In this document: positions 1 through 20,000 of the stretch, piece by piece
Position numbering within the stretch: position 1 is the stretch's first letter
How the letters are laid out: every line of letters starts with the position of its first letter
Source: Reclinomonas americana ATCC 50394
Lineage: Eukaryota
Assembly: GCA_048213135.1 (NCBI GenBank)
Contig: PS015018.1
Span: forward strand, 48,348 to 68,347
Direction of reading: 5' to 3'
Length of the DNA stretch: 20,000 nucleotides
Position numbers and translations under genes: made by a program
The notes under the pieces: generated by a model
Seen by the model: only the letters and a program-made list of their open reading frames with translations
Told to the model about the DNA's origin: nothing
Database searches by the model: none

Positions 1-1257
1 GGCGACGCACCCAACGGCGGCAGCAGCATCGGCGACTGTGGAAGTTGACGAACGTGCTGTGACTGTGCTTGTTGCAGTAGCAGTAGTTGCTGCTGCTGCT
101 GCTGTTGTTGTTGTTGTTGTTGTAGTTGCTGACTCGCCAAGCGTGTGGCCACCGGAGAAGAGAGCAGCAGCGTTGAATCCGCGGCTGTCGCCGACGGCAT
201 CGGTAGTGAGGCGAGCATCGGCGGCACCGACGGTCTGGTGGTGACTGATGAAACAGCCGGTACTACGACACGCTGCATTGTGGGTGACAAGCCGGTGGGT
301 ACTGTGGTCGTGGTGCTGGTGCTGCTGGCCATCATCATAGCCGGAGTCACCATCGAAGCGCCACCGCTGCGACTCATGAATGCCGACGACGGCGACCGTG
401 ACGAGGAGCTGACCAGGCTGGCACGCCGCGCCTGGGATGGTGAGTCCTCGCCCTCGGGCCTGTCATCGTCGGACGCAGAGTCCGACGGTCCATACGGGTG
501 ATGCCGATCCGACGCAGCAACACCCGGCGACCGACGGCGACCGCCCATCACCGCCGCAGAATACGCCCGCCGTCCTCGCTTGCCTTTTGGCGGCGAGTCC
601 TGGCCATAAGTCTGCGATAACAACAACAGCGCAATCAGTTGTCCGACCACAGTGCAGTGATGACGCTGGCTGGTTTCACACATACCGGTGAGTCGGGAGC
701 GTCATCGACACCCGAGCCTGGTGTCTTGGCTTTCCGTCGTCGGTTCTCGAACCATACCCTGCGACGCCCGCAATACTTTGCTGTGAGGCGCGCGGAAACA
801 ACTGTAACGAAAACAAACACACGCAACGTTACACTCGTCAGAGTGCGTCCGAATGCCGCGGCAATCTCCTCCTTCTCGTGCCTTGTCGGGAACGAGTTGG
901 TCTTGTACATGGTCTCCAGGATGTGCAGCTAGCAGCAGCAGCAGGCCCATCAGTCACAGTGACAAACACATACAGTCTCAGTCTCAAAAAATGAATCCGT
1001 GCACAAACCTGCTCTGGCGTGTACTTTTTGTACGAGCGCGACTTGTGCTGCTGCGAGCGCGCCTGTATGCTCTGCACAAGCGACGCCGCCGTGGCAGACA
1101 GAGCCGCTGCCGTGGACAACGTGGACGATGATGAGGGTGAGGCAGGCATGGTACCAATGGTGATTGGGGGCGCCACAATGCGCATCAAGGACGGCGGCTG
1201 TTGATGAACAGGAAAGTCGGTGTTGCGATTGCCACTTGGCTGCTGGTCCATCAGCAT
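1..1257 (-). CDS. Homeodomain transcription factor (3' end runs off the window); Ser/Pro-rich, with poly-Gln C-terminal region
   Basis: Exons 1257-1009, 928-828, 758-686, 611-<1 (GT-AG introns 1008-929, 827-759, 685-612) give ...KSRSYKKYTPEQ|LHILETMYKTNSFPTRHEKEEIAAAFGRTLTSVT|VWFENRRRKAK. This has homeodomain spacing L16, Y20, P26, A35, W48-F49-x-N51-R52-R53. ATG 1257 is tentative because an acceptor-like CAG lies just upstream. Confidence 0.9.
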
Positions 1258-2227
1258 TGTCTGACACACGCGGTGTGGGCGGCAAGGGGCAAGAGAGAGC
1301 AAGAGCTTTCTGGACACCAGCATACACAAAGTGAGCTGATATTGTTGACAAAAAGACAAGATCGCGCGTTGCTTCTGCTCACGCACCAAGCACGCCAATA
1401 AGTGGTGAGAAAGGCGAGACAGAGAGACAGAGAGAGGGTTGAATGAGAACAATGAGAACCGAGAGTGGCAAGCATGATCAATTTTTTTGTTTTCTCTCCA
1501 ACAGGCAGGCATGCACCAAGCGCACCAATAAGCAGCGGCACATGTAACAAGCATGCAGCACCACACACAAGATGCTTGAGGGACGACGCGCGCGAGAGAG
1601 AGAGAGAAAAGAGGCAAAAAAGTTGTAGTATTCCCCTTGCGCCGGTATGACTGTGTGCACGTGGTGCGCTCTGCTCGCACACACAAAGAGCTTTCTGCAT
1701 CACTGTCAACACAAAAAAAGAGGCAATAAAAAAAGGAAAACACAATGCACTTTCGCTGTGTGTGTATATAATGCGCGTGTGTTTGTGTGTGTGCAAGACA
1801 GGAGAGTGTGCGAGAATGTTCGAGTTCAGTGCACCAGTGTGACTGGAAATGCTGCAGAAGACTGAAAGAAAAGGAGTACTTATTTTTGTGTCTCACCTTC
1901 AACACACTCACATGTGGGTGAGAAGAAGCGACGTGCACATGACAGGTGGAGAGACAGCGAGAGAGCGGGGGGGAATGTGAACAAGAATCAATCATTATTT
2001 TGTGGCAAGAGGGAAAACGGTCTCGTCCCTCTCTCTCTCTCTCTCCCCTTTCGTGTGTGTGTCTCTCTCGCCTGCTCGTGCATATGTGTGTCTCTCGGTA
2101 TACAATACGTGAGGGATGTTCACCTGTGTTCCGCGTGCGTCCCCGTGTGCTCTTCGCTCCTGCGACAAAGAAAGAAAAACAACAACCAGTGTTGTGCTGG
2201 AAGGGCACTCCGGCTCCGTATCCCCGT

Positions 2228-2563
2228 ATGGTAGGGATCCTGACAATTCGCCATTGGCCGTTTTCGTACACACACGCGATGCCGTCTTTTCTCTCGCACA
2301 CCCGCGCCATGACAGGCTCCGGTTCTCGTGCTTTCCCTCTTTTTGCGAGTATGGTCATTCCACACGTGGCGTGCACGCTACATCGTCATTGGAGGGCGCA
2401 TTGGATTCCTTGCAATATGGTTGTTGGTGATACTGCAGCCTTCGGGCGCGTTGTGTTTGCTGCCTTTGGCGTGCCCCGCTTGCTCGGGATGTCCGGAAGA
2501 GGCGTGTCATACCACAGCAGAAGAAGAGCAGCTGCCCATCGATACTGCTACGGTCGCTCCGAG
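2228..2563 (+). CDS. Possible 5' exons of an unknown membrane-anchored protein (runs into a gap)
   Basis: ATG 2228|GTAGGG...ACAG 2315|APVLVLSLFLRVWSFHTWRARYIVIGGRIGFLAIWLLVILQPSGALCLLPLACPACSGCPEEAC..., then AG|GTCGCA at 2564 and a CAG at 2735-2737. Hydrophobic segment plus Cys cluster; no homology recognised. Confidence 0.25.
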
Positions 2564-4722
2564 GTCGCATGTTGACTCGGCGAGCGATAACCAAACACGG
2601 CAACGTACATGTAACAAGAGCCCGCGCAGCACGCCTTCACTCACGCCCTTCACTCTTCCAGCAGGCCACCGCCCCACACCGCTTCCTCCCCACCAAACCC
2701 CTCTCTGTCCCCCTTCCTCCGCTGCACAGACCCCCAGNNNNNNNNNNNNNNNNNNNNNNNNNNNNNNNNNNNNNNNNNNNNNNNNNNNNNNNNNNNNNNN
2801 NNNNNNNNNNNNNNNNNNNNNNNNNNNNNNNNNNNNNNNNNNNNNNNNNNNNNNNNNNNNNNNNNNNNNNNNNNNNNNNNNNNNNNNNNNNNNNNNNNNN
2901 NNNNNNNNNNNNNNNNNNNNNNNNNNNNNNNNNNNNNNNNNNNNNNNNNNNNNNNNNNNNNNNNNNNNNNNNNNNNNNNNNNNNNNNNNNNNNNNNNNNN
3001 NNNNNNNNNNNNNNNNNNNNNNNNNNNNNNNNNNNNNNNNNNNNNNNNNNNNNNNNNNNNNNNNNNNNNNNNNNNNNNNNNNNNNNNNNNNNNNNNNNNN
3101 NNNNNNNNNNNNNNNNNNNNNNNNNNNNNNNNNNNNNNNNNNNNNNNNNNNNNNNNNNNNNNNNNNNNNNNNNNNNNNNNNNNNNNNNNNNNNNNNNNNN
3201 NNNNNNNNNNNNNNNNNNNNNNNNGAAAACAGTCAGCGACTTACAGACAATCAACAAAAGATACGGACGACGGATAGCGCTGTATCCTGCTTCCTTGATG
3301 CACACGTTCTATATGTGTGCAACAATCTCACTCACTTACTCACTAGCAGCACAAGCAAATGTCCCGATCAACGCACACTCTTCTTGAAGGCGCTTTTCCA
3401 AGAGTGGAAAAAGCTCCCAATCGACACCATTAAAAAAAGAGAGCACAAGAGAGACACACACAATACATGGCAACGTACACAGGCATACACACACGCGCGC
3501 AGCTTCCCCCACGGAACACAGATGCCCAGAAAAGGAGCCTAGTAGATTGCTCGACGCGCAGTATGCGAGAGAGAGGACGGCGCGGTGGAGAATGACCAGA
3601 AAAGGAGAAGTCGTCAAGCGAACCGAACACCGGCATTATTCGCATGCGCGCGCAAGAGACTTTCTGTGTTGTCCAGAAAGAAAGAAAAAGTGGGGGTGTC
3701 GCGACGCAGAATACAGAGTTTGACACGAAAATCAGGAGAGGGAGTATGGGCATGTGCGGCGTGGAAACAGGGACGGAAAAAGAAGAAGAAGAACGGCAGA
3801 AAGAGTGCGTGTGTATTTGATGAGAATGGGAGGAAAAAAGAAACGACCGAAAGAGACCCAATAAAGTATCTCTTTTGCAACAGCCAACTGCAGCAAAAAA
3901 GCAATACGCGTTGCCGGCTCGGCGGCGGAAGGAGTAGGGTGGAAGAGAAGGAAAGAGAGAGCGGGTGCTCGGATACGACACGCGAGACACGCGAGCGGGG
4001 AGAAAATAAAGATGCTTGCATCAAACGACAAATCCCCGCAAGAGTGACGAGAAAAACAAGGCGACATACCCGCACACAAGCGTGGCAGAGACGCCGCCAG
4101 CGTGGAAACAGGGGAGACGAGCGAAAAGTAGTAGTGAAACCAGAGGCGGCAACGGTGAAAAACAGGGAGAAAACACGTCCCACCACAAAACAACAACGGG
4201 GCACACACACAAGAAGAGGTGAGTAGGGCAGAGGAGTAGAGGGAGACGAGAGCATCAGGGGTTGCATGCAAGCTGCAGGGGAGGAGATAGAGAGAAAAGG
4301 GCAACCAGCACGGAAACATGTCCCCCTACACAAAGAGAGAGAAGTACTCTTGCATTGTAGCGCAGGGGTACGCGCAGCAAGACTAGCACACACAGCAGCA
4401 GCCGGAGGTCAAGAGAAGAGTTGACAGCAGGGAGAGAGAAAAAGAGAGACAGCGACTGTCATTTCCGCGTGTGCATATTCGACAAAAGCGAATGGTCGAC
4501 GCATGCAGATATCGCAGCGAGAGAACATCGGCGAGATGAAGACGATAGAATAACAACCCGTGCAGTGAGAAACACTCTCATCGAGGCACAAAGACACAGA
4601 GAGGCGAGCAAGCGAGGGAGAGGAATAATGATTGATCTTCACGCATGCGAGGAAACAGCCAGCAAGAATCATTAATGTCGTGAAGAGGAAACGTGTGCCG
4701 TGATGCTACATAGAGAAAGGGA

Positions 4723-4726
<4 letters not shown>

Positions 4727-4819
<93 letters not shown>

Positions 4820-4820
4820 G

Positions 4821-4856
<36 letters not shown>
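4727..4856. repeat. (GA)n microsatellite at a contig end
   Basis: About 130 nt of near-perfect GA repeat; (GA)n resumes at 5547-5576 after the gap. Confidence 0.95.
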
Positions 4857-4857
<1 letters not shown>

Positions 4858-5546
4858 GAGACGAGACGAGACGACGACGACGACGACGTACGTACGTAGT
4901 AGTAGTACGTAGTAGTAGTAGTANNNNNNNNNNNNNNNNNNNNNNNNNNNNNNNNNNNNNNNNNNNNNNNNNNNNNNNNNNNNNNNNNNNNNNNNNNNNN
5001 NNNNNNNNNNNNNNNNNNNNNNNNNNNNNNNNNNNNNNNNNNNNNNNNNNNNNNNNNNNNNNNNNNNNNNNNNNNNNNNNNNNNNNNNNNNNNNNNNNNN
5101 NNNNNNNNNNNNNNNNNNNNNNNNNNNNNNNNNNNNNNNNNNNNNNNNNNNNNNNNNNNNNNNNNNNNNNNNNNNNNNNNNNNNNNNNNNNNNNNNNNNN
5201 NNNNNNNNNNNNNNNNNNNNNNNNNNNNNNNNNNNNNNNNNNNNNNNNNNNNNNNNNNNNNNNNNNNNNNNNNNNNNNNNNNNNNNNNNNNNNNNNNNNN
5301 NNNNNNNNNNNNNNNNNNNNNNNNNNNNNNNNNNNNNNNNNNNNNNNNNNNNNNNNNNNNNNNNNNNNNNNNNNNNNNNNNNNNNNNNNNNNNNNNNNNN
5401 NNNNNNNNNNNNNNNNNNNNNNNNNNNNNNNNNNNNNNNNNNNNNNNNNNNNNNNNNNNNNNNNNNNNNNNNNNNNNNNNNNNNNNNNNNNNNNNNNNNN
5501 NNNNNNNNNNNNNNNNNNNNNNNNNNNNNNNNNNNNNNNNNNNNNN

Positions 5547-5581
<35 letters not shown>

Positions 5582-6564
5582 AGAAGAGGAGCGGACGTTC
5601 TGGCGAAGGAGACTGCTGTAACTGGAGCGAAGTCAGAGAGAGTGAGAAAAGAGACCAGCACGATTAGATCGCAGCACAAGTGGCAATGTTTTGGCGAAAG
5701 CAGAGGGTAGTGTGAACATCGAGGGTGGGGGAAAAGAGAGCATGCATCTGGCAATGCGCGGATGCGATGTCACGACAATGGCATACGAGAACAGTGGAGT
5801 AGTACCGCAGCAGTTCAAGAACAAGCAGCAAAGGTGAGACGTGGGTACAGAAGTGATGCGACGAAGGGAGCGCATAGAAGCGCACGTACAGAAGCACTGG
5901 TAATGGTGAGGCAGGATCCTGAAGGCACAACGAGCAGACCAAGACAGCACAGACTCGAGCACAGCGACAGAAGACAACGCACGATGGTAACGAGAGAACG
6001 ACGCACACTTCGCACGATTTCACAAACACCGGGGAGATTCGCACAGGAAGAAGAGCTTCAAAGGAAACCAGGGCAGATTTAAGTGCGTACGAGAATTACA
6101 AAGCAGTGAAACAAGAACACGCCATCAAACGACTGCGCAGCAGCGGCGATCACGTGAACGACAGTGGGACAGCACGAGCTGCGAGCGAGATGAGGCAACA
6201 CACACAGGGACACGAGAGAAGGAAGGCAGGTGAGAAGCTGACAGCGAGCAGCCACAAACGACATTAAACAAGAATGCAAGCACACACAATATTCGACACG
6301 AGAGAGCAGGAAGTCTGCGACAACCATCGGTGCAGATGACAAGAGATGGAAACGAAGCAAGAGCACAGTCACGAGGACAAGACGATACGAGCGAGCAGTT
6401 GGCTCCGTGACTGCAGACAGTCGAGCATCGGAACGAATACGCATGAAACGCAGGCACACGAGAGAGCAGGTAGTTGGTGACAGACAGCGAGCGAGCACAC
6501 TCGAGCAACGAGCGAAGCGAGAATGCATTCTAGAAAACGACACGAGAGAGCAGATGGACAGTGA

Positions 6565-6932
6565 CAGCACAAGCAACGAATGCACAACGATGAGGAAACA
6601 GACTGTTGTTGAGAGCACGTGGTATAGCGAGTGACGAGAGAGGCAAGCGAACAGCGACACGAGGGAGCGCAGTCGGCGACAGACAGCGAGTCACACAGAT
6701 AACAAGGAACGATCAAAGAACGCAACCACGAAGCCACACACGACGACAGAAGAGAGCAGCTAGCTGCTGAGGACGGCGATTGTGCAGCACAGGCAACGAA
6801 TACAAAGCGATGAGGAAACAGTACTTGACGCGAGCAGATCGTGTCAATTCCAAGTGACGAAGTGAAGCCAGCGAACAGCAACACGAGAGAGCGCATCGTC
6901 GATGAAGGGAGCAAAAGTAACGAATGCACAAC
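6565..6932 (+). repeat. Imperfect 37-nt direct repeat (two copies plus one partial)
   Basis: 6565-6601 CAGCACAAGCAACGAATGCACAACGATGAGGAAACAG vs 6785-6821 CAGCACAGGCAACGAATACAAAGCGATGAGGAAACAG (33/37 identical); AACGAATGCACAAC again at 6919-6932. Confidence 0.7.
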
Positions 6933-7092
6933 AATAGAAAAGACGGGCTATTGATGAGAGAGCACAAGAGTCGAGCACGTCGATGGGTAGGTCGCGATGG
7001 ATTACAAAGAAGCAGCGAACACACTGACACACACATCTCCACACGGGCGATCGAGAACTCTCCACGCTGCTACGCACGCTGCGCCTGTCGAC

Positions 7093-7126
<34 letters not shown>

Positions 7127-7187
7127 ATCATCCTGTTCTCTGCCTTCTCAATCTCCTTCTCCTTCTCCTTGCTGCCGACAACGAAAC

Positions 7188-7864
7188 TTGCGACGAATGG
7201 CACGAGTGCGCTTCACACGGAGATCCAACGGCAGCTGGCTCTTGCCGGCAAACGCCTTGCGTGTGTTGCTGCGGCGCTTGGCATTCAACACCGTCAACAC
7301 GCGAGCAATGTTCTTGCGCACAGACGAGCTGCGATACACAAAACACACAAAGTCAACAACACTGCTCCATCGCCCGTCCTCCTCCTCCTGCTGCTGCTGC
7401 TGGCACGCAACATCTTGCCGAGCTTGGAGGCACCACCGCTGGTCACTTGCGCGACGCGCAGTTGTGCGAGCTCCTGCTTGAGCTCGGAAAGCTGGCGCTG
7501 CAGCTCCTCAGGTGACTTCTCGCGGAGCGAGTACGCAGAGATCTTGGCTGTGTGCGTGCGTGTGCGTGTGTGAGTGACATGACATGTGCGCGCGCGAGTC
7601 ATGGCCAACAACAACAACAATCGCAGCAGAAGCAGAAGCACACAAAGGACGAGTCCTCTCTTTGCTCTCTCACTGTGTGCACGCGATGCGCGGGACCACA
7701 CCACACTCGTACGTGAGCGTGCGTGCGTGTGGGCGCACATGCATGCACATCAGACGCACTCTCTCTCTCTCTCTCTCAAGCCTGCCCTGCCCCAATCCGT
7801 CTCTGTTTTTTTCGTTCACACGCAGCACGATGCTCCCTGTCCCTGTGTACCCTACGCAACTCAT
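7188..7864 (-). CDS. RPL35: 60S ribosomal protein L35 (uL29); final exon not found in called sequence
   Basis: Exons 7864-7861, 7547-7412, 7328-7188 give [103 protein letters not shown] and PLDLRxKxTRAIRR are eukaryotic L35 motifs. Confidence 0.95.
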
Positions 7865-8205
7865 GATGATGTGGTGGCTCAGGGGGCGAGGCGCGATTGG
7901 TGAGTGTGGACTCGGTCCGTCCACTGGCACAGACCGTCGAATCCGTAACGTGTGTTTCGTATCTCGAGCTATCATGTTTTCCAGGCTGGGGCGTCTCTTG
8001 TTGCGTCCATCTTTGTATATTGTGAAAGAGAGACAGAGAGAGCGGGCTGAGCAGAGTTGAAGTGTGTGTGTGTCGTTGGGTGGAAATGGACGGCGTTCGT
8101 GTCCTCCTTTCTCTCGAGTGTCTGCGTGCGTGTGTGTTTCTCTCACGCGTGCTGGTGTGTCTCCCTCTGTATGTGGGTGGCACACNNNNNNNNNNNNNNN
8201 NNNNN

Positions 8206-9429
8206 ACGGAAGAGTCTCTTGAAGATCTTCTTGACGATCGACAAGAAGTCGCGTGGGAATGGTTGATCTGCCCACAAAGAGTCAGTCACTTGCAGCGTGA
8301 GTATGGATGACGAACAGCTGCTCCCTGCCCTCTCTCTGCTCGTGAGTGCACGTGTGCTCACCTGGCTTGGAGGGGAAGATGGTTTCTTGTGACACCGTGT
8401 CGCCAATCCATTGCATCAGCAGCTCGACATACTCCGGTGCCGACACCTTTACCGGCTTCTTCACCTTGTCGCCATCCGCCCACAAGTACTCGTACTGCAA
8501 AACAACAACAACAACAACAACTGTGAGGGGGGAGGGAAAAAACACCCCCCACACACGCTGCTGAGTGAACTGCACCTTGGGACCGGCATTCATCGTCGGG
8601 CACGTGGTCTCATCGCAAAACTCAGTGATGCTTCCGTACAACAAGTTGGTCGTGTTGTAAAAGTCAATGGCTGCGCCAAAACGGAACGGATGGAGAGAGG
8701 AGGAAGTGAGCACAGGAGAGCAAGGAGAGTGTTCTTTGCGAGGATTGACGAATTGTGAGCTCAACTGTTGACTGCCAACCACTCATTCAGTTCCTCTCCG
8801 GGTGGAAGCACCACAGCCGCTCGCAAGTCACCGCTGCCGAGGGTGGCCTTGGCCAGCTTGTGCAATGAGAACTGCTTGGTGCCCTGTGTGTGTGTGTGGA
8901 GAGATGATTGAGTGAGAGTGATCAAACCGTCGAAATACACAGAGAGAGAGAGTCNNNNNNNNNNNNNNNNNNNNNNNNNNNNNNNNNNNNNNNNNNNNNN
9001 NNNNNNNNNNNNNNNNNNNNNNNNNNNNNNNNNNNNNNNNNNNNNNNNNNNNNNNNNNNNNNNNNNNNNNNNNNNNNNNNNNNNNNNNNNNNNNNNNNNN
9101 NNNNNNNNNNNNNNNNNNNNNNNNNNNNNNNNNNNNNNNNNNNNNNNNNNNNNNNNNNNNNNNNNNNNNNNNNNNNNNNNNNNNNNNNNNNNNNNNNNNN
9201 NNNNNNNNNNNNNNNNNNNNNNNNNNNNNNNNNNNNNNNNNCGAAACTCGAATCGAGGGCGCCGGCACAAACAGCTTGCGTCTGTGCGTGAAAAGAGGGC
9301 CCGATCAATTTGTGAGGGACCTGCTGCTCATCGACACACACACGCGTGCTATCGCGCACTCTTCCTCTCTCTCTCTCATGTGCGCGTTGTTGAAGCAACT
9401 CACCGCGATGGCGACGTGCTGTCGGTCAT
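8206..9429 (-). CDS. MOB1: MOB kinase activator 1 (MOB1/phocein family), N-terminal and central exons
   Basis: Exons 8883-8766, 8670-8576, 8494-8362, 8267-8206 give [79 protein letters not shown]...[18 protein letters not shown]. Putative first exons 9429-9404 and 9281-9248 ([20 protein letters not shown]) are lower confidence. Confidence 0.9.
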
Positions 9430-9812
9430 TTTTCCTCGTCACCAACTCACTCTCTCTCACTCACACACACGATCGCTCCCTCTCACTCGCTCTCGCACAC
9501 ACACTGTCACAGTTGGCGATGTGGATACGAAGGAGTTGTTGTGATGCTGCTCTTCTCAACTCAAGCAACAAGGGACAGGACTTCTTTGATCGACACTGTA
9601 CACTCGTTGTTCGCTTTTTTTGTTTTTCGCGTGTTTTTCTTCGCGACCCGCACAGACGCGACACACACACACGCACATGCAAAGAGGGTGCGTGGAAGCG
9701 TTGCGCACTAATACATACCAACCACACATAAGACACAAACACAGAAGGACACAACACAACTTGAAGGGCTTCCACGCCGACCAAGTCCACACACACACAG
9801 ACAGTCACGCGC

Positions 9813-10125
9813 TCAAGAGAACAACGAGTTGATCAGGTCCTCCAGCGGTGCGAGTTCCTTTCGATCAATCAGATCGAACTCAAACACTGTGTACGCGCGC
9901 GCAAGTCAGCAGCAAGGAGAGGAGGATGGAGAGAAAGAGGAGGCTGGTGACGCACCAAACCACATGAAGTGCTTGAACGCCGTGTTCAAGTGTGCTTCTT
10001 CGCCGAGTTTTTGGATCTTGGCAAAGTGGCAGTAGTAAATGTGCGCTGCGCGAGAGTGATGGAGTGAGGCGGGGACGGAAGGCAGGAGGCAGGCCGCGAA
10101 TTTGCATCAGCGGCTCACCGTACAC
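9813..10125 (-). CDS. MOB1: MOB1 C-terminal exons, located upstream of the N-terminal exons on this scaffold
   Basis: Exons 10125-10119, 10045-9956, 9886-9813 give VYAHIYYCHFAKIQKLGEEAHLNTAFKHFMWFVFEFDLIDRKELAPLEDLINSLFS*, the canonical MOB1 C-terminus. Confidence 0.92.
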
Positions 10126-10616
10126 NNNNNNNNNNNNNNNNNNNNNNNNNNNNNNNNNNNNNNNNNNNNNNNNNNNNNNNNNNNNNNNNNNNNNNNNNNN
10201 NNNNNNNNNNNNNNNNNNNNNNNNNNNNNNNNNNNNNNNNNNNNNNNNNNNNNNNNNNNNNNNNNNNNNNNNNNNNNNNNNNNNNNNNNNNNNNNNNNNN
10301 NNNNNNNNNNNNNNNNNNNNNNNNNNNNNNNNNNNNNNNNNNNNNNNNNNNNNNNNNNNNNNNNNNNNNNNNNNNNNNNNNNNNNNNNNNNNNNNNNNNN
10401 NNNNNNNNNNNNNNNNNNNNNNNNNNNNNNNNNNNNNNNNNNNNNNNNNNNNNNNNNNNNNNNNNNNNNNNNNNNNNNNNNNNNNNNNNNNNNNNNNNNN
10501 NNNNNNNNNNNNNNNNNNNNNNNNNNNNNNNNNNNNNNNNNNNNNNTTCCCACTCTCACACACACTTTCCTTGGCAGCAACGCGTGGCACTCACACACTC
10601 TGTCAACCCCCCGCAG

Positions 10617-12522
10617 ATGCGCCCGATTCAATACCTGACCGAGGATCACAAGGTCCGCGTTCGAGAAATCCGCTCCATGACCTGGCTGCAGCACACTCGC
10701 GATGAGGTTGGTCGCGTTCTTTGTGTAGTGGAGAATGCCAACATCGTACTGTGTCTGTAGAAGCGATGGGGAAGATTTCATTCTCCTTCGTTGATCGTTG
10801 TCTCTCTCTCTGTCGCCAGATCTACGACGGTGCCTACGAGCTGCTTCTCGATTCGCCGCACATGCCACCGACGGTGCGCGTGGCCGACGTCATTTACGAG
10901 GTGCTCATGCGACGGCATGTGCACAAGAGCGTGGCGGATTTGGTGCGCTCGAGCTTGAGTGGCACACGCAGTTTTCCGTGGGGGGCTGACGCGGTGATTT
11001 CTCCTTGCGTTGCAGGTGTGGTACGACATTGCGCAGGCGATTCGTCGCCGTGCCGTGGGCGAGGATCGATCGCTGCGCCAGCTTTATCGCTTTCTGCGGA
11101 ATGTGAACACGGTGCCGGAGTTCATGTGCTACGCCTACGTGCGGGCGCTCACGGCGGCCAAGCTCGGTGCGCGAGACATTCAGTTGGCTGTGCCTGGTAT
11201 CGATGTTGCGTGCCGTGCAATGCACGCCCACTCTCTTTTTCCTCCCGTCCCATCTCATTGTGCGCGCAGTCCTCGTCGAGGAGAGTCGTGCACTTTGATC
11301 TGCCACTGGAGCTCGACGTGCACGACGTGACGGAGCAGCTGTTGCCGACACTGCGACTACTGCCCGGCCTAATTCCCGAGACCGCTGTGCAGCGCATTAC
11401 CGCCTTTGTTGCGGAGAAGCAGCAGGCGCATGCGCACTTGGGAGCGCCGAGCACCGTTGCTGCGCACGATCTGCTGCAGCTGGTGCTGGAGCACGCCGAC
11501 TACGACGCCATGTTTGCTGGCTCGGCGGCCGGTCTGCAGGACGCGGCACATGACTTGGTGTTGACCGGTTCGTTGTTGTCGCCACGGCATGTGCGGCGGT
11601 CGCATGTCGCCGGCGAGGAGTACGGCAGTGATCATCCGTCGTCGTTGCTGTCGGGCTCCTACGGCACCTCCGCGAAGCTGTCGCCGCCTGCGCCGCTGTC
11701 GTTTAGCTCGTTCCAACAGCCGTCGCCACGGTTGCATCAGCAACGGCAGGTGGACTTTGACGACGGCGACGGTGGTACATTCGGCGAGTCTGCCGACGAC
11801 GAGTACAATGTCGACAGTGACGACGATGATTACGATGGGGTGGAGGACGACAGCGGCGACGACGACGACGGTGACATGCAGCCAACTCGCACCATGCTGC
11901 CCATGTTTCCGGTGTGTGTGTGTGTTTTTTCGAGTGCCACCACTTGTTACTCTGTGTGGTATCCAGCACTCACCTCCCTCCTCCTCGCGCAGGATCACGA
12001 CAAGATCACGCAAGATCTCTTTCGTGAACTCGAGTCGATTGTGGGACCCGGTCGCTTGACAGCACTTTCGACCGCGCGTGGCTCGTCGACCTCACCAGGC
12101 AGCAGGTGCGTGTTGCTTGTGCGCTCGTGTCGTTGTACTTGGCTAGTTGAGTATAACATTGTGCTGTTGCCAATGTGCAGCGTGCCGGTGCGACCGAAAC
12201 CGCAGTCTGTTGCGGGCGGCCTCAGTCGTGAGTGTCTACGTCAGCAGCATGCACTGGTGTAATATTTCTCTTCTCACTATCATCGATGTGTGTGCGCGTG
12301 CGTCACAGCCGGAAGATCAAGTGGGGCCACGCGTGCTGGATCGGATGGGGTGAGTAGATCAAATATCCGTTCTCTCGCGCCTCGCTCTCACCACTCGCCG
12401 CACAGCCTGTGATGATTGACATTTCCGCCCCTCCGCGGAATGAGTTGGCGGAGCGTGAGCAGTTTCTGCGGCAGGTGGAAACAGCGGCCGACGAACTCAC
12501 CCGACGCGAATCAGAACGCGTG

Positions 12523-12558
<36 letters not shown>

Positions 12559-13598
12559 TTGGCGGTGCCGACGTTGCAAAAGACACCGGTTCGCTACTCT
12601 CACGTCTCTCGTGGAGAATTTTCGCATCTCATTGATACTCTCGTAGGATGGCGATGCGACAAGAGGCGGCGGCGGTGGCGGCGGCGCGGGTGATGGTGGT
12701 GGCGGCAATAGTGGACCGACCTCGCTCGAGTCATCGTTTGCCAGCCTCGGTGACGAACCGAGTCGCGAGTGGTCGTCGGTGGACGAGTCATTACTCGGCG
12801 GGGCAACTGCAGACGGCGGTGACGATGCCGGTCCGCTGCACTTTGACTCTGATCTGTCGGCTCTCCGACACACCTTCCAGCCGCTCAGCTCAGCTGGCGA
12901 TAGTGGTGCCGGTGGCAGTGGTGGGTGGATGGAGAGAACGTGGGTGTGTCTTGTTGTGGTGATACGTGTGTGCTCATTACCTACCGTACGCAGCTCCCAC
13001 GTCATCGTTCCTCGAGCTGCCTGTCCCCGTATCGCAATCTCGAGAGTCGCCGCGATCGTCGGCATCGTCCACGCCGTCGGCAGCTCGCATGCAGTCCATT
13101 CTCGAGGAGTACGATCGACTGAATGCCGAACGCAGCACACGTCGTCTCTCGTCGGAACCTGTACCGCCGGCACGAAAGCACCCAGTTCTGCAGCCTATTG
13201 TTATGGAGACGGCAGCCTTGGTGGACTCGGCCACGTCGCCGGTGGAGCACCCGTCGTCCACTGGCTCCGACACCAGACCATCGCGATCGACCGCCAGCGG
13301 CGGAGTGGTCAACAGCGGCACGCAACCGAGTGACGACGATGGAGACGACGAACGAGAGGAGGGCGACGGCGGCGACGATGACGATGACGATGACGACGAC
13401 GACGAGGGCGGCGACTTTGACAGCTACAGTTCCGAAGACGAGGAACTCACCGAGGCCGATTTGCTGGCGATTCTCGAAGACGCCAAGTGGAAAGCCGAAA
13501 TCGCCACGCTGGTCACCGAGGCTCGTGCCGAGTTTGAGCTGGAGCAAGACAGTGATCGCTTCGTGCGCCGGTACAGCTCGCAGTTCCCGTTGCAGTGA
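10617..13598 (+). CDS. Hypothetical multi-exon protein: helical N-terminal domain, then long acidic, Ser-rich, poly-Gln and poly-Gly low-complexity regions (5' end may lie in the gap)
   Basis: Nine GT-AG introns (donors at about 10707, 10943, 11205, 11912, 12106, 12228, 12350, 12589, 12921) join in frame: MRPIQYLTEDHKVRVREIRSMTWLQHTRDE|IYDGAYELL...HKSVADL|VWYDIAQAIRRR...PGID|SSSRRVVHFDLPLE...EQDSDRFVRRYSSQFPLQ*. Confidence 0.75.
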
Positions 13599-13653
13599 AA
13601 CCATGCAAGTCAATTTTCCCGCCAGCATTTTGTTCTGCATCGCAAACCACCCC

Positions 13654-13996
13654 ATGAGAGGAGCACAGACTCTCATCGGCGTCGTCGTCCTCGTCGGCAC
13701 ACTATGTGTGCTTGCCTCACGCGCCACCGCGCTGCTCGGGGGTAAGAGCGTCGCAGCACATGAGCGTGACAGTGGGAGTTTGTGCACACTCACCTCTCTC
13801 TCTCTCTCGCAGGAGGCTTCGGCGGTGGCTCTCTCTTCTCTGGAGGCTCTCTGACGCTGCAGTATCAGCCACACTCGTTCCCCATTGCCGTGATCGCATA
13901 CAACAGACCCGACTATCTGCGACGCACACTCGAGTCGCTGTTGAAGGCAGACGGTGTCGACGCCACACAGATTGTCATCTATCAGGCACGGATGTC

Positions 13997-14068
<72 letters not shown>

Positions 14069-14204
14069 AGTAGTAGTAGTAGTAGTAGTGTGTGTGTGTG
14101 TGTCGACGACGGTACGGTACCGGTACGTACGTAGTAGGTACGGGTACGACGACGACGCGTCGACGTACGTCGTCGACGTACTTCNNNNNNNNNNNNNNNN
14201 NNNN

Positions 14205-14296
<92 letters not shown>

Positions 14297-16213
14297 CAAG
14301 AGGTTGATGATGAGTTGTCTTGTGCGTGCAGGACGGCTATGATGAGGGCGTGGATCGCGTGGCGCAAGAGTTTGTCGCCTCGCATAGCATGCGACACGTG
14401 CAGCACCCGCGCGTGCTCATTCGCAGTGAGGGCGCCGAGTTCATCGCCGACATGTACGCGTTCGTGCTGGAGCATGTGTTTGGCGAGTTTCCCGAGACCA
14501 AGGCATGACGAGGGAGGAGAGGTGTCATGATGGTTTTTCGTGCTGGCTGACTCGCTGGCGTGCTCGTGCACAGCATGCTATTATCATGGAGGATGATCTG
14601 GAGGTGGCCGCGGATATTTTGTGGTACTTTGCCATGATGGCACCGCTGCTCGATCGTGAGGAGGGCGAGCACACGTCCGTGGAAGTCGACGCCACTGTCA
14701 TGGCCATCAGCGCCTACAACGACAATGGCTTCGAGGGCCGTGTGCGCTTCACGAATCAGATGCATCGCACCAACTATTTTGTCGGTATGTTGCTTCTCTG
14801 CTCTTGTGACCGATGTGTGGACGTACGACCCACCGCCCCACCACTTCTGCTGCAGGACTGGGTTGGCTGTGCAGTCGGTGGCTGGCGGAGGAGCTGTTGC
14901 CGCAGTGGCCGAGTACGCATTGGGACATGTGGATTCGCAAGTCGGCCATTGCGAAGAATCGTGTGACGCTGTATCCTGAAGTGAGTCTCCCTCGTTGTTG
15001 TGTGGGAGTTGTCTGCTGAGGTTGTCGCTGCTGCAGATCTCGCGCGTGTATCACTTTGGCGAGGTTGGCACGCACACTTCCCTCGTGCCGACAACCATGT
15101 ATTCGCGCATCGTGTTGGCCAGCAGTGCCGCCAGTTGCGTCGCTCTCATGTTGTGGAGGACCATAAACAGTAGATCTCATGGTGAGCGGGCAGGAATTCT
15201 GGACTGGAGACGGTACCGAGAGGCGGACTATGACGCCTTCTTGCAGCAGCAGTTGGTGTCGGCGGTGAGCGTGTCCACCATGGACGAACTCGAGGCCGTG
15301 GCCGACATGGTCACGTCGCAGCCGGTGGTCATGTGGCTCTCTCTTGGAAAAGATGAGGTTTCGTGCACCACCACCTACCAACCTACCCTCCTCTCCATTC
15401 TCTTACATGACTGTCGGTGCAGGAAATCTGGCAATTCGTCGCAAGTGTGTTTGAGCTGTGGCCCAACAGCAACCCCATTCGCAACTCCTACAAGGGTTCG
15501 TGGATACTGCGTGTGGGAGTGTGTGTGCCCTCGGCGGCCCATTAGGGTGTGGCTTTCCTGACTGCAGGTGTCATTCCACTGTGGTATCGCGAGAGACGAC
15601 TGTACTTTGTGCTGGACACGTCGCCGTTTGCCACTCTGCGACCTGCTGTGGTCCCTGTGATTCCGGCCAACTACTGGCACCGGGTGCGCGTGTACTTTGT
15701 GTGGAAGATGCAGCGCCGTCACTGACACTCTCAACCACGCACCAGATGGAGTTGTCGCAGCTCAACGAGTCGTGCGAGGACGCCTGCTGGCGCCACAAGC
15801 TGCACTGTGTCGTTGCGCGCGCCCACCAGCCAACTTGGTCTCTTCGCTAACCCACCCCGTCTCACTCGAGTGTGCGGTGTGTCGCAGCCGGCGCTATTCT
15901 TCGCCTTTAATCAGTGCGCATCGCTGCGCAAGATCTTTACGTGCGCCAGTTGCGTGGAGAAGAACGCCGACATGGGACCGGGCTTTGAGATGCAGGTGTG
16001 CCACCGTGCATACGCTCCACAGGTTTTCTTTCCTCACTTGCCGCTCAGGATCGGTCGTGCGTCTTCGACAGCGGCCTCGACGGTAGTCGCGAAAGCAACT
16101 GCTCACGTCGCAGTGCCACCTTTCATCAGCTGTGCCCGTGCGCCCGAGAAACACCCTCCGGCCGATGGACCCTGGTCTCCCGAGCACCTGCTCGCCCCAC
16201 ATCGCAATCATAG
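13654..16213 (+). CDS. GT13 family beta-1,2-N-acetylglucosaminyltransferase (GnT-I/POMGNT1-like) with N-terminal signal/anchor and C-terminal Cys-rich domain
   Basis: Twelve exons. GT13 motifs: IAVIAYNRPDYLRRTLESLL, IVIYQ|DG, IIMEDDLEVAAD (DxD-like EDD), ISAYNDNG, RTNYFVG|LGW, WPSTHWDMWIR, PE|ISRVYHFG. Hydrophobic leader MRGAQTLIGVVVLVGTLCVLASRATA. An alternative in-frame ATG lies at 13603. Confidence 0.9.
14000..14296. repeat. (GA)n microsatellite inside GT13 intron 2, interrupted by a 20-N gap
   Basis: GA repeats at 14000-14070 and 14209-14296. Confidence 0.95.
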
Positions 16214-16287
16214 ACTACTGCCAGCGTCGCATAAAGAACTTTTGTCGTCCTTCAATCGTCCTCCTTCCCATCACACAGCGCCTTGAC

Positions 16288-18250
16288 ATGAGCCACGGCA
16301 CTCCAAGGGGAGGCTCAGTGGCCATCAACAGCCCGTACACCGCGGGCAACTCGACGGCATTCCGCTCAGGGTCCACCGATGACATGCTGCGCATGGACGA
16401 CACCGGCAAGATCAACGACAGTCTCACCCCTGTCGACGGTGACGATGAGAAGCTGGGCTTGCTGGTGCACGGGGAGCGTGACAGACGACCAGCGGAAAGC
16501 TCGTTGCGTGTTGGAGGGAGAGAGGGAGAGGGAGAGAAAGAATGTGTGCGTGTGTGTGTGACTGATGATGCGTGCTCGAGCAGATGGGCAATCGCACTCT
16601 TCAACTTTATCAAGTCGTTCATCGCCTCGGGCATTCTCGCCATGCCGTTCGCCTTCAAGCAGTCCGGCACACTGGTGAGTGGTGTGATGCACTGTCTGTC
16701 TCGTGCGTGTGTGTGCGTGTGTTGACACTCTCTCCCTCGCAGTTGGGCGTGATTCTGATGGTGGTGTGCACCGTCGGCGCCGGCTACTGCATGTTCCTGC
16801 TCATTGAGATCACCAAGACGAAGCCTATGGGAGTCATCAACGAGTACGCACTCGTTGGCAAGCTGGCTTTCGGAGAGCTCGGCGTGCAAATGGTGACTGC
16901 GGAAGAACCAGCCAGAGCTGTAGGGAAGAGGCACTCACTCGGCCTTTTTGCAGATTGACGCGTTTCTGGTGCTGACCCAAGTCGGCTTTTGTTGCGCGTA
17001 CATGATCTTCCTCGGCACCATCCTGTCGTCGCTCATTCCCGCCCTCAACCACTACGAGTGGATTCTGATTGCGTTGCCGGTGGTGATTCCGCTCAACTTT
17101 TTGCGTGATGTCCACAAGCTGGCGCCGTTCTCCATGGTTGCTCTCTGCTGCGCCATGGTGGCCATTGTTGTCGTGTCTGGTGAGTGTGTGTGTGTGTGTG
17201 TGTGCGTGTGTGCCGTGGACGAGAGCGTGTGCCATGTACTAACGGAGCGGCAGTGTTTGCCGGCGAGCACATCACGTCGCTGCCGGCCGGCTGGGCCAAG
17301 ACGCGCTCGTTGGCCACTTGGAATTTCCCGGTGGCCATCGGCACCTTTGTGTACGCTGTCGAGGGCATTGGCCTGGTCATTCCCATCTACAACACGCTGC
17401 GCAACAAGGATCGCTACCCGTCGATCATCATTGTCGGCATGGTGGTCATGTCGCTGCTCACCACTGGCTTTGGTTTCTTCGGGTACCTGGCGTACGGCGA
17501 TCAAGACACCAAAGACAACATCATCGACAGCATTCCCAGCCACAGCATCTTCACCAGTTGCGTGCGTACGGTGCATTTTCTTGCAAGATGAGCTGCCAAC
17601 CAATTTACACTTGTGTGTGTGCGTGCGCAGAAATCATCAAGTACATTCTCTGCGTCGTGATGCTGTTCACGTGCGTGTGTCGTGTGGTTGCCAGTGTGTG
17701 TGTGCGCGCGCGCAGTCATGTGTGCTAACAGCATTGCCCTTCTTCACAGGTACCCCATGCAGATGAACCCGGTGCTGGATCTGACAGAGCGCCGTATCTT
17801 CCGCAAGTATCCGTGCGTATCTCAGTGCTCTCGTCTCTCTGTGTAATCGCGCTGGCGATCTTACCCTCTCGTTCTGCCCTGCAAGTGTGTTGGATCGACC
17901 AACGTGGTGGGTGAATGCGTGGCGTGCGCTGCTCGTGGTGACCACGGCGCTGGTGGCCATGGGCATCCCGCATTTCGGCGACTTCATCTCGGTGATTGGC
18001 TCGGCCGGCAGCACCATGCTCGCGTTCACTTTCCCCGCCCTCTTCCACTGGAAGGTGCTGCGCAATACGCTTTCGCTACGACAGGTATGCGTGTGCGTGT
18101 GCATTTTTGTTTACGACGCTTGCTGATCCCCCCACCTGCCTGCTGCGACAGAAAATCATCGATTGGACTTTTGTGATTGTCGGCAGCATTTTGTGTGTCG
18201 TCTGCACCACGTTCTCGGTGTGGAACCTCGTCAAGGTTATGACATCGTAG
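16288..18250 (+). CDS. Amino-acid/auxin permease family transporter (Aa_trans; SLC36/AVT3-like proton-coupled amino-acid transporter)
   Basis: Nine exons. Motifs FNFIKSFIASGILAMPFAFKQSG, TQVGFCCAYMIF, FVYAVEGIGLVIPI, GFFGYLAYG, FT|YPMQMNP, IPHFGDFISVIGS, AFTFPALFH; many hydrophobic helices. Confidence 0.93.
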
Positions 18251-18456
18251 TTTTAGAGCGTGATCAATATTTTTGCCACCACGCCCCCCAAACAACAACA
18301 ACTCATAGTGAATTCATCATCATCAACAACACCCCTCCCTAAACAAACAACGAAAACAATCAACGAAACAACAACAACAACATAACTCTAGCACAGCAAC
18401 AAACAGGTTACAGATGCGACTACAGTTGTACAGCAGTGTGTGTATGAGCCTGCTCG

Positions 18457-19030
18457 TCACGCCTCGACACCGACGTCTTGCGGTGCATCGGCGGCCACTC
18501 CCAGCAACTCGGGCGACGCTGCTCCTGCGCCCTCCGACTCGTCATGTACAACAAAGTTGACCACACCGTCGCTGGCCAGACAGAGTCGCTCAATGTGGTC
18601 GAGAACGCCAACAGGAGGCAAGTTTCCTGCACGTCGTCGCCAGTGAGCACCCTCACCGGCAAAGGCAATAAACCAAAGGGAAAACAGAAGCAGCAACGCA
18701 ACTCAGCGCGTACAACGAGCGCAGAGTGGGACACGACCGCGAGTATGCAACTCGCGCCAATGCCAGCGTGTGCATCCTGGCGCCACACACTGCCGCCACT
18801 CGCAGAGTGAGTACATGAGACACGCACGCGAGCGTCATTCGTGTTGTACGCAACTCGAGGCCGCAAACTTGCGCAGTGAGCGGTTCTGAGCAACGCCCTC
18901 GGCGATTCTCACAATGTGCCGATTGAACGAGTTCTCTGTAGCAGCCAAATGACGTGAGCGGTGCAATGGAGGAGAGATGTGAGGCGGGTTGTGACGCAGG
19001 ACGCAACTCGAAATCGACATTTCTTCCAGA
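18457..19030 (-). CDS. RNI-like leucine-rich-repeat protein, C-terminal exons
   Basis: Exons 19030-19008, 18935-18855, 18789-18703, 18626-18457 give LEEMSISKNSFNRHIVRIAEGVAQNRSLRKFAASMCGARMHTLALARVAYSRSCPTLRSLYALRNLPPVGVLDHIERLCLASDG...VEA*. Confidence 0.75.
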
Positions 19031-19511
19031 NNNNNNNNNNNNNNNNNNNNNNNNNNNNNNNNNNNNNNNNNNNNNNNNNNNNNNNNNNNNNNNNNNNNNN
19101 NNNNNNNNNNNNNNNNNNNNNNNNNNNNNNNNNNNNNNNNNNNNNNNNNNNNNNNNNNNNNNNNNNNNNNNNNNNNNNNNNNNNNNNNNNNNNNNNNNNN
19201 NNNNNNNNNNNNNNNNNNNNNNNNNNNNNNNNNNNNNNNNNNNNNNNNNNNNNNNNNNNNNNNNNNNNNNNNNNNNNNNNNNNNNNNNNNNNNNNNNNNN
19301 NNNNNNNNNNNNNNNNNNNNNNNNNNNNNNNNNNNNNNNNNNNNNNNNNNNNNNNNNNNNNNNNNNNNNNNNNNNNNNNNNNNNNNNNNNNNNNNNNNNN
19401 NNNNNNNNNNNNNNNNNNNNNNNNNNNNNNNNNNNNNNNNNNNNNNNNNNNNNNNNNNNNNNNNNNNNNNNNNNNNNNNNNNNNNNNNNNNNNNNNNNNN
19501 NNNNNNNNNNN

Positions 19512-20000
19512 CCGCTGCGGAACGTGGATGTGGCGGCCAACCATTTCGACATGAGTGCATCTCGCGCACTGGCGGCTGCGCTCGCCACCGACTGGCCAGT
19601 GGAGTCGCTGTCGCTGTGCGGCTGCTCCATCAGCGCCGCTCTGCTCGAGCCGTTTGCGGATTTGTTGAGTTGCCATCCGACTCTGTCGACGCTTTCGCTC
19701 GCCTGGAATCCGCTGTGGGGCGGCGGTGCGACGCTGCTTGCGCGTGGATTCGCAAGTGGCAAGTCGGCACTGAGCGTGTTGGATTTGCACAACTCGCGAC
19801 TGTCGGACGCAGGGGCGCAAGTACTGCTGCGCTCGCTCGTACACGTGCCCCATTTGCGCGTTCTCAACATGTCCAGTTGCGTCGCACTCCTTTGCAAGTA
19901 CCGCTTGCGCACTACATGCTAACCTCGCGCCACCAGATGTGAGCATGCAGTCGGCAGAAACAGCCGAGTGCATCTACGAACTGCTGCTGGTCAGCGAGCA
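19512..20000 (+). CDS. RNI-like leucine-rich-repeat protein, internal fragment
   Basis: About 28-aa LRRs (LRNVDVAANHF, VESLSLCGCSI, LSTLSLAWNPL, LSVLDLHNSRL, LRVLNMS|NVSM). Intron 19876-19936 carries a GCTAAC branch point. Confidence 0.85.

Follow-up and report, generated by a model that had tools for sequence, protein, structure and literature searches.

The 20,000-nucleotide stretch of Reclinomonas americana ATCC 50394 DNA analysed here, referred to as the window (contig PS015018.1 of assembly GCA_048213135.1, positions 48,348 to 68,347 of the forward strand), carries a single U2-type 5′ splice-site word in two forms. In the second of these the intron typically starts with GTTGCGT, and the form probably represents a site at which the U1 small nuclear RNA (snRNA) pairs in a register shifted by one base relative to the cut. 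Gene models were built by reading all frames and placing the introns by their coordinates, region 1300-7100 being excluded, and intron boundaries were set from reading frame and protein homology under GT/GC-AG rules. The window belongs to a gap-rich draft, with seven N runs across the 20 kb, and its gene-bearing parts are ∼55-60% G+C. The models comprise 42 introns in eight genes (span 612-19936), 29 with standard or degenerate donors and 13 with shifted donors, and at least one shifted donor is present in each of the eight genes. After removal of the modelled introns all nine spliced reading frames are open. Introns are 53-113 nt long (median ∼72 nt), with the exception of two of 313 and 346 nt, and those with a shifted donor are similar in length to the remainder.

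The two donor classes are associated with the last base of the preceding exon (in the sequences below a slash marks the boundary between exon and intron). Exons that end in A, C or T are followed by GTTG(C/A)G at 13 of 17 donors and by a standard donor at the other four, while GTTGNG occurs at none of the 25 donors that follow a G (Fisher exact P=9.3 × 10^-8). This contingency test on the 42 frame-modelled introns upholds the original prediction that donor type is tied to the last exon base. The pattern also agrees with the approximate counts given in that prediction (15 shifted and four standard donors after A, C or T, and 26 donors after G), although two of its shifted donors have no counterpart in the models, region 1300-7100 lying outside them. 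The four standard donors it had named after a base other than G (12228, 14981, 17671 and 17813) are exactly the four in the models, and the G-ending donors it had listed, G/GTGACT at 16893, G/GCACGG at 13986, G/GTTTGT at 1008, G/GTTTCGT at 15358 and G/GTGCAGT at 8575, are all present. Within the shifted class T at +3, G at +4 and G at +6 are each found in 13/13 donors, C at +5 in 12/13 and T at +7 in 11/13; the class is rigid, with TGCGT present in 11/13. The last exon base is A in eight members, C in three and T in two, and is never G. GTTGCGT occurs 15 times on the two strands of the window, compared with 4.45 ± 1.94 expected from 200 shuffles (none of which reached 15), and 11 of these 15 occurrences are modelled donors. 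The common standard form is (C)AG/GTGAGT or GTGCGT, with GTGCGT or GTGCGC in 6/29 standard donors.

Typical members of the two classes, CA/GTTGCGT and CAG/GTGCGT, differ by a single letter, a G to T change at the fourth place. As this change leaves only the GT that starts one base earlier, the cut would fall one base upstream. When pairing was computed with the canonical U1 5′ end (as printed in PMC4856993), which may differ from the host's own U1, the shifted class had 6.77 paired positions when the register was moved and 4.31 when it was normal; the standard donors (n=29) had 4.59 and 7.66, respectively. The ‘displaced intronic register' invoked by the original prediction is, by this measure, the best description of the class. 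The exon side of the junction shows the same displacement. The last exon base of the shifted donors fits the composition of position −2 of the standard donors (A12 C6 G4 T7; permutation P=0.43) and misfits that of position −1 (P=5 × 10^-5), while the base that precedes it fits standard position −3 (P=0.90). On the intron side, GCGT at register positions +3 to +6 is found in 11/13 shifted versus 4/29 standard donors (P=2 × 10^-5).

In the mechanism that we propose, U1 snRNA would most likely bind both forms at the same place in the RNA, with the register moved by one base relative to the cut in the shifted class. The pairing place usually taken by the −1 G would be filled by the first G of the intron, and that of the −2 A by the final base of the exon, which is mostly A; U6 and U5 would then choose the GT in later steps, U6 presumably accommodating the extra base. 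One central U1 pair would be lost, such that the remainder of the word must be near perfect, which we suggest is the reason for the rigidity of the class. The dependence on the last exon base would similarly follow from the geometry of the moved register. The proposal in the original prediction that donor type is set by the final base of the exon for want of exonic pairing is not supported, as the intron would itself supply the pairing G, with its first base, and the exon would end at −2. The two-by-two table is largely a near tautology of the motif AGTTGCGT, and the −1 rule a by-product of this geometry rather than a switch. Since G occupies position −2 in 14% of standard donors, at which frequency a count of 0/13 has a probability of 0.15, the absence of G/GTTGCG falls short of demonstrating an exclusion rule. 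Compensation between position −1 and the intron side, to which the original prediction appealed, is visible inside the standard class, where 4/4 donors after a base other than G carry G3/G5/T6 and 9/25 donors after G carry R3/G5/T6 (P=0.03). Conversion of a standard into a shifted donor by the single G to T change would bring a frameshift, and the class is therefore no simple mutational derivative of the standard form.

The exact cut is fixed by protein homology in three to four members of the class. The exon before the MOB1 donor at 8765 aligns with residues 22-60 of human MOB1A (chain 5twg_A) and the exon after it with residues 62-92, leaving one residue for the split codon, and this donor has no frame-keeping alternative within 24 nt, the distance within which such alternatives were listed for each shifted donor. 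The exons that flank the RPL35 donor at 7411 align with residues 3-46 and 49-93 of the uL29 chain 5xxb_g; the second match starts at query residue 2, so residue 1 corresponds to residue 48 and the split codon has exactly one residue, 47, to account for. At the other RPL35 donor, 7860, the next exon begins at residue 3 of the same chain, into which a Met and one split codon fit. Judged by this collinearity, the predicted cut in MOB1 and RPL35 (A/GT or T/GT) is fixed exactly, one base upstream of the junction that U1 pairing implies. Sliding both ends of the intron by one base, to give TT...GN, preserves collinearity in MOB1 too, and was rejected as non-canonical. At the homeobox donor, 827, residues 1-26 of the upstream exon align with positions 12-37 of the Pfam Homeodomain, which brings the end of this 33-residue exon to position 44, and residues 1-11 of the downstream exon align with positions 46-56 (a weak match, E=0.06). 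The one position left for the split codon supports a predicted cut at C/GTTGCGT. In the other nine shifted members the cut was placed from the reading frame only, and one rival donor is common to the class, a GC three bases downstream (GTT/GCGT).

Several points weigh against a simple shift of the U1 register. The sample is small, 13 shifted introns from one 20-kb window, and a choice of boundaries by GT/GC-AG rules favours finding some GT. The introns at 15134 (60 nt) and 16503 (81 nt) are open and in frame, the motif and the intron-like sequence being the only grounds for their removal; the stretch at 15134 displayed no Pfam match, and a PDB comparison did not discriminate. The duplexes predicted with canonical U1 are weak even in the best register, with a mean of −1.74 kcal/mol versus −6.97 kcal/mol for the standard donors. 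Moreover, C at +5 of the shifted donors (12/13, versus 10/29 at the matching place in the standard donors; P=6 × 10^-4) is a mismatch to canonical U1, and simple shifted pairing leaves this near-invariant base unexplained. The model also leaves unexplained the depletion of phase 0, which is found in 2/13 shifted versus 17/29 standard introns (P=0.017).

The near-invariant C and the weak canonical pairing hint at an adapted U1. It is conceivable, and we put it forward tentatively, that GUUGCGU is recognized by a U1 snRNA that has adapted or exists as a second type, or by some other dedicated factor. Such a U1 could carry a G opposite position +4 of the normal word (a 5′ end of the ACGUAC or ACGCAC type), or could be a variant complementary to the whole word. 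It would make the class well paired, and would refine the shifted-register model rather than replace it. The bias towards C described above is in favour of this view, as are the duplex energies, since an ACGUAC 5′ end gives −5.85 kcal/mol for the class and, in the moved register, −8.4 kcal/mol for a member of typical sequence. There is also precedent, described in a preprint (bioRxiv 10.1101/2022.06.08.495308), in a candidate ACGUAC U1 that accompanies GUGCGC donors in Mastigamoeba balamuthi and a fully co-evolved U1 in Entamoeba. The same source, however, describes C at +4 together with a standard U1 in Thecamonas and Mamiellales, and the standard donors of the window show little preference among A, C and T at +4 (9, 10 and 8 of 29), which speaks against a U1 with G at this place. 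A scan of the window against Rfam matched no family, and thus no snRNA gene was found within the 20 kb.

A bulge could produce the same word without a moved register, as GTTGCGT is GTGCGT plus one T. In this scheme U1 (and U6) would keep to the normal register on GU-U-GCGU, and one U at +2/+3 would be extruded from the duplex. A single-nucleotide bulge at +2/+3 is a predicted or validated human register, with 68 predicted sites of which 54 were left after curation (PMC4856993, Table 3), and some bulge would be needed at catalysis anyway if U6 pairs with G6 and U7. The bulge would, however, place the last exon base opposite C9 of U1, where G should be favoured as it is in the standard donors (25/29). 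The complete lack of G at this position in the shifted class (0/13; P=5 × 10^-5), with the enrichment for A (8/13), makes the bulged register improbable, and the shift of the whole U1 register remains the preferred reading.

Misplacement of the boundaries is less probable still. The true introns could start elsewhere, for instance at the GC donor three bases downstream, or the stretches concerned could be retained coding sequence. The GC reading keeps the frame in 7/13 members (the candidates are 11205, 15812, 16503, 19876, 18854, 7860, 7411 and 827, apart from those that homology contradicts), the genome seems to use GC-AG introns, two of the donors modelled in the GnT-I-like gene being GC, and the open, in-frame introns at 15134 and 16503 would also suit this explanation. 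It leads, however, to a stop in 15134, 17557, 19007 and 18702, is impossible in 8765 (GTTGAGC), and inserts an extra residue that breaks collinearity in both RPL35 and the homeodomain; to read one motif in two ways is, in addition, unparsimonious. A GC start with an open and collinear frame is not a property of the class as a whole; in the remaining members, taken singly, such a start is possible. Least likely is a spurious extra T introduced into GTGCGT donors by sequencing or assembly: this is a poor draft, with artefact-like low-complexity sequence beside its seven N gaps, and an extra T within an intron disturbs no frame, but an error would not pick exon ends other than G (13 versus 0/25), would not pick C at +5 and would not make the same heptamer recur 11 times, and TT is not an error-prone homopolymer length. 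The argument of the original prediction that the correlation speaks against random sequencing error stands.

Other types of intron were considered. U12-type (minor) introns have the donor consensus /RTATCCTT, which is matched by 0/42 donors. A family of introner-like or transposon-derived introns was rejected after an all-against-all blastn of the 42 introns, which found nothing in common except simple repeats and the initial 9-10 bases; as the shifted introns have nothing in common beyond the donor, they are not copies of a mobile element. Near the 3′ end of the introns a branch-like motif, CTGAC, CTAAC or TTGAT, is present in about half of the 42, and CTCAC in many others, the mix being the same in both donor classes. 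The combination of GCG in the donor with CGC in a CGCAG acceptor, counted by eye, is found in 6/13 shifted versus 7/29 standard introns.

The human splice sites that are recognized in a shifted register number a few dozen. In human cells it is experimentally established that U1 can pair one position off and the GU be chosen later (PMC4856993; reviewed in PMC9311317). These sites were described by Roca and Krainer in 2009 (via Tan et al. 2016, PMC4856993; test oligo ACA/GUCAAGUAUA), and rescue by suppressor U1 in the shifted, and not in the normal, register has been described for human sites (PMC4856993). The donors reported here would resemble them in that cleavage at the GU falls one base before the site that U1 pairing predicts, the first G of the intron pairs as the −1 G, register position +1 is mismatched and good downstream pairing is needed. 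In contrast to all validated human non-canonical registers, which together amount to 1.5% of 201,541 sites (PMC4856993), the class comprises 13/42 introns, displays the rigid word GTTGCGT with a C at +5 that goes beyond canonical U1, and is known here from sequence alone. The human bulge +2/+3 register (Roca et al. 2012, tabulated in PMC4856993) similarly has one extra U between the GU and the paired G, but it keeps the −1 G pairing, while a −1 G is present in 0/13 of the donors described here.

Donors of Archamoebae offer a second comparison. In Entamoeba GUUUGU donors occur with a U1 that starts ACAAAC, and in M. balamuthi GUGCGC donors occur with the ACGUAC candidate (bioRxiv 10.1101/2022.06.08.495308). 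As in these organisms, U at +3 is generally tolerated in R. americana and C at +4 is common. T at +3 follows an exon that ends in G in 5/29 standard donors, 10707 (GTTGGT), 12589 (GTTCGC), 15358 (GTTTCG) and 15496 (GTTCGT) on the plus strand and 1008 (GTTTGT) on the minus strand. A changed U1, as in Archamoebae, would explain the rigid C of the shifted class. Unlike R. americana, however, these lineages have one donor class that is cut in the normal register, and the accessible sections of the preprint mention no GUUGCG class. Mamiellales green algae have strict GTGCG(T/C) donors, which the GTGCGT and GTGCGC forms among the standard donors recall, but these genomes are intron-poor and are described with one class only (bioRxiv 10.1101/2022.06.08.495308), in contrast to the second class and the 8-11 introns per gene found here.

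A literature search, judged by titles and with supplementary tables and most subscription papers outside its reach, found no paper on GTTGCGT as a splice-donor word. A concept search for a shifted-register donor class returned, among the matches listed, nothing closer than a preprint on tunicates in which a shifted register is raised as speculation. As far as searched, the type of mechanism is known from humans, while a lineage with ∼31% of its introns (13/42) in such a class, with its own rigid word, has not been described. One may speculate, with less confidence than for the shifted register itself, that R. americana has a natural two-register spliceosome, in which the shifted U1 register is a major class of ∼30% of introns with a near-invariant (C)A/GUUGCGU read by a co-evolved U1 (G opposite C) or by a second, dedicated U1. 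How the spliceosome chooses where to cut if the GU disagrees with U1 pairing has so far been investigated at a few human sites and in artificial minigenes. If the class extends genome-wide, such that the cut lies one base upstream of a U1-type word in about one intron in three, this organism would provide hundreds or thousands of natural test cases for the hand-over from U1 to U6, for the extra base between the GU and the ACAGAGA pairing, and for the co-evolution of U1 with its target. Gene finders trained on G/GTRAGT would get a large proportion of this genome's exons wrong, which may be the reason for its proteins being missing from the protein collections searched.

Donors, GC-AG introns and genes modelled in the window
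Feature	Position	Strand	Gene and intron	Phase	Evidence and remarks
Shifted donor T/GTTGCGT	11205..11211	+	gene A, intron 11205-11269	0	this donor and the CAG acceptor are the sole pair that gives the frame change f0 to f2; a GC donor 3 nt further downstream is also frame-possible
Shifted donor A/GTTGCGT	15134..15140	+	GnT-I-like gene, intron 15134-15193 (60 nt, in frame)	1	+3 GC reading gives in-frame stop
Shifted donor C/GTTGCGC	15812..15818	+	GnT-I-like gene, intron 15812-15887	0	frame f2 to f0
Shifted donor C/GTTGCGT	16503..16509	+	amino-acid transporter, intron 16503-16583 (81 nt, in frame)	2	
Shifted donor A/GTTGCGT	17557..17563	+	amino-acid transporter, intron 17557-17630	1	frame f0 to f2; +3 GC reading gives stop; flanking exon Pfam Aa_trans
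Shifted donor A/GTTGCGT	19876..19882	+	LRR gene D, intron 19876-19936	1	frame f0 to f1; CTAAC branch-like motif 15 nt before acceptor
Shifted donor A/GTTGCGT	19001..19007	-	LRR gene E, intron 19007-18936	1	+3 GC reading gives stop
Shifted donor A/GTTGCGT	18848..18854	-	LRR gene E, intron 18854-18790	1	frame
Shifted donor A/GTTGCGT	18696..18702	-	LRR gene E, intron 18702-18627	1	+3 GC reading gives stop
Shifted donor A/GTTGAGC	8759..8765	-	MOB1, intron 8765-8671	1	sole member with A at +5 in place of C
Shifted donor A/GTTGCGT	7854..7860	-	RPL35, directly after ATG, intron 7860-7548 (313 nt)	1	
Shifted donor T/GTTGCGT	7405..7411	-	RPL35, intron 7411-7329	2	
Shifted donor C/GTTGCGT	821..827	-	homeobox gene, intron 827-759	2	
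Standard donor after non-G, C/GTGAGT	12228..12233	+			frame
Standard donor after non-G, A/GTGAGT	14981	+			frame
Standard donors after non-G, C/GTGCGT	17671 and 17813	+			frame
Inferred GC-AG intron, donor G/GCACGG	13986-14331	+	GnT-I-like gene		includes an N gap and long runs of (GA)n
Inferred GC-AG intron, donor G/GCATGA	14503-14573	+	GnT-I-like gene		in-frame GT donor 30 nt upstream (14473) also possible
Gene A, unknown acidic protein	10617-13598	+			frame reading
GnT-I-like glycosyltransferase	13654-16213	+			Pfam GNT-I
Amino-acid transporter	16288-18250	+			Pfam Aa_trans
LRR gene D	19512 onward	+			frame reading
LRR gene E (second LRR protein)	19020-18457	-			frame reading
MOB1, in two pieces	8883-8206 and 10125-9813	-			Pfam Mob1_phocein
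RPL35 (uL29)	7864 downward	-			match to uL29 chain 5xxb_g
Homeobox gene	1257 downward	-			Pfam Homeodomain

Searches of protein collections with single exons returned one match, distant and fungal, for the transporter, no match in the collections searched for the GnT-I-like protein, and five matches at 60-73% identity for MOB1; the nearest MOB1 match, P0002, is only ∼45-70% identical. The N-terminal three quarters of MOB1 and its C-terminal quarter (VYAHIYY... to the stop) lie on the same strand in the wrong order, with the C-terminal piece ‘upstream' of the N-terminal one (regions 8206-8954 and 9242-10125). A tblastn search with MOB1 relatives gave the order 8868..8206, then 10046..9822. This arrangement is probably a scaffolding error around N gaps. 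In RPL35 the sequence ...RAIRRK is followed, at 7140-7200 on the minus strand, by a short unrelated tail and a stop, with a Lys/Glu-rich continuation in another frame, which points to a further small intron or to a frameshift error in the draft. Upstream, the homeobox frame continues without a stop over 515 codons, as far as 2385 (region 838-2385, minus strand), and the true start may lie well upstream of the modelled ATG at 1257.

The region 3225-7080 includes ∼3 kb that is strongly purine-rich on the plus strand and is without a Pfam-supported gene; its only tandem repeat is (AG)n at 4712-4871. One G/GTTGCGT word, at 6726 on the minus strand and outside the modelled donors, lies inside this region. 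Runs of (GA)n at 4712-4923, 5547-5576, 13999-14184 and 14205-14297 decay into strings with GACGA, ACGT or AGT periodicity beside N gaps, and these degraded strings look like an assembly or read artefact rather than biology. On the plus strand the spacers between genes, from a stop to the next ATG, are 55 nt (13598-13654) and 74 nt (16213-16288). As these same-strand spacers are very short, untranslated regions, promoters and poly(A) signals must overlap across them, or the genes must be co-transcribed.

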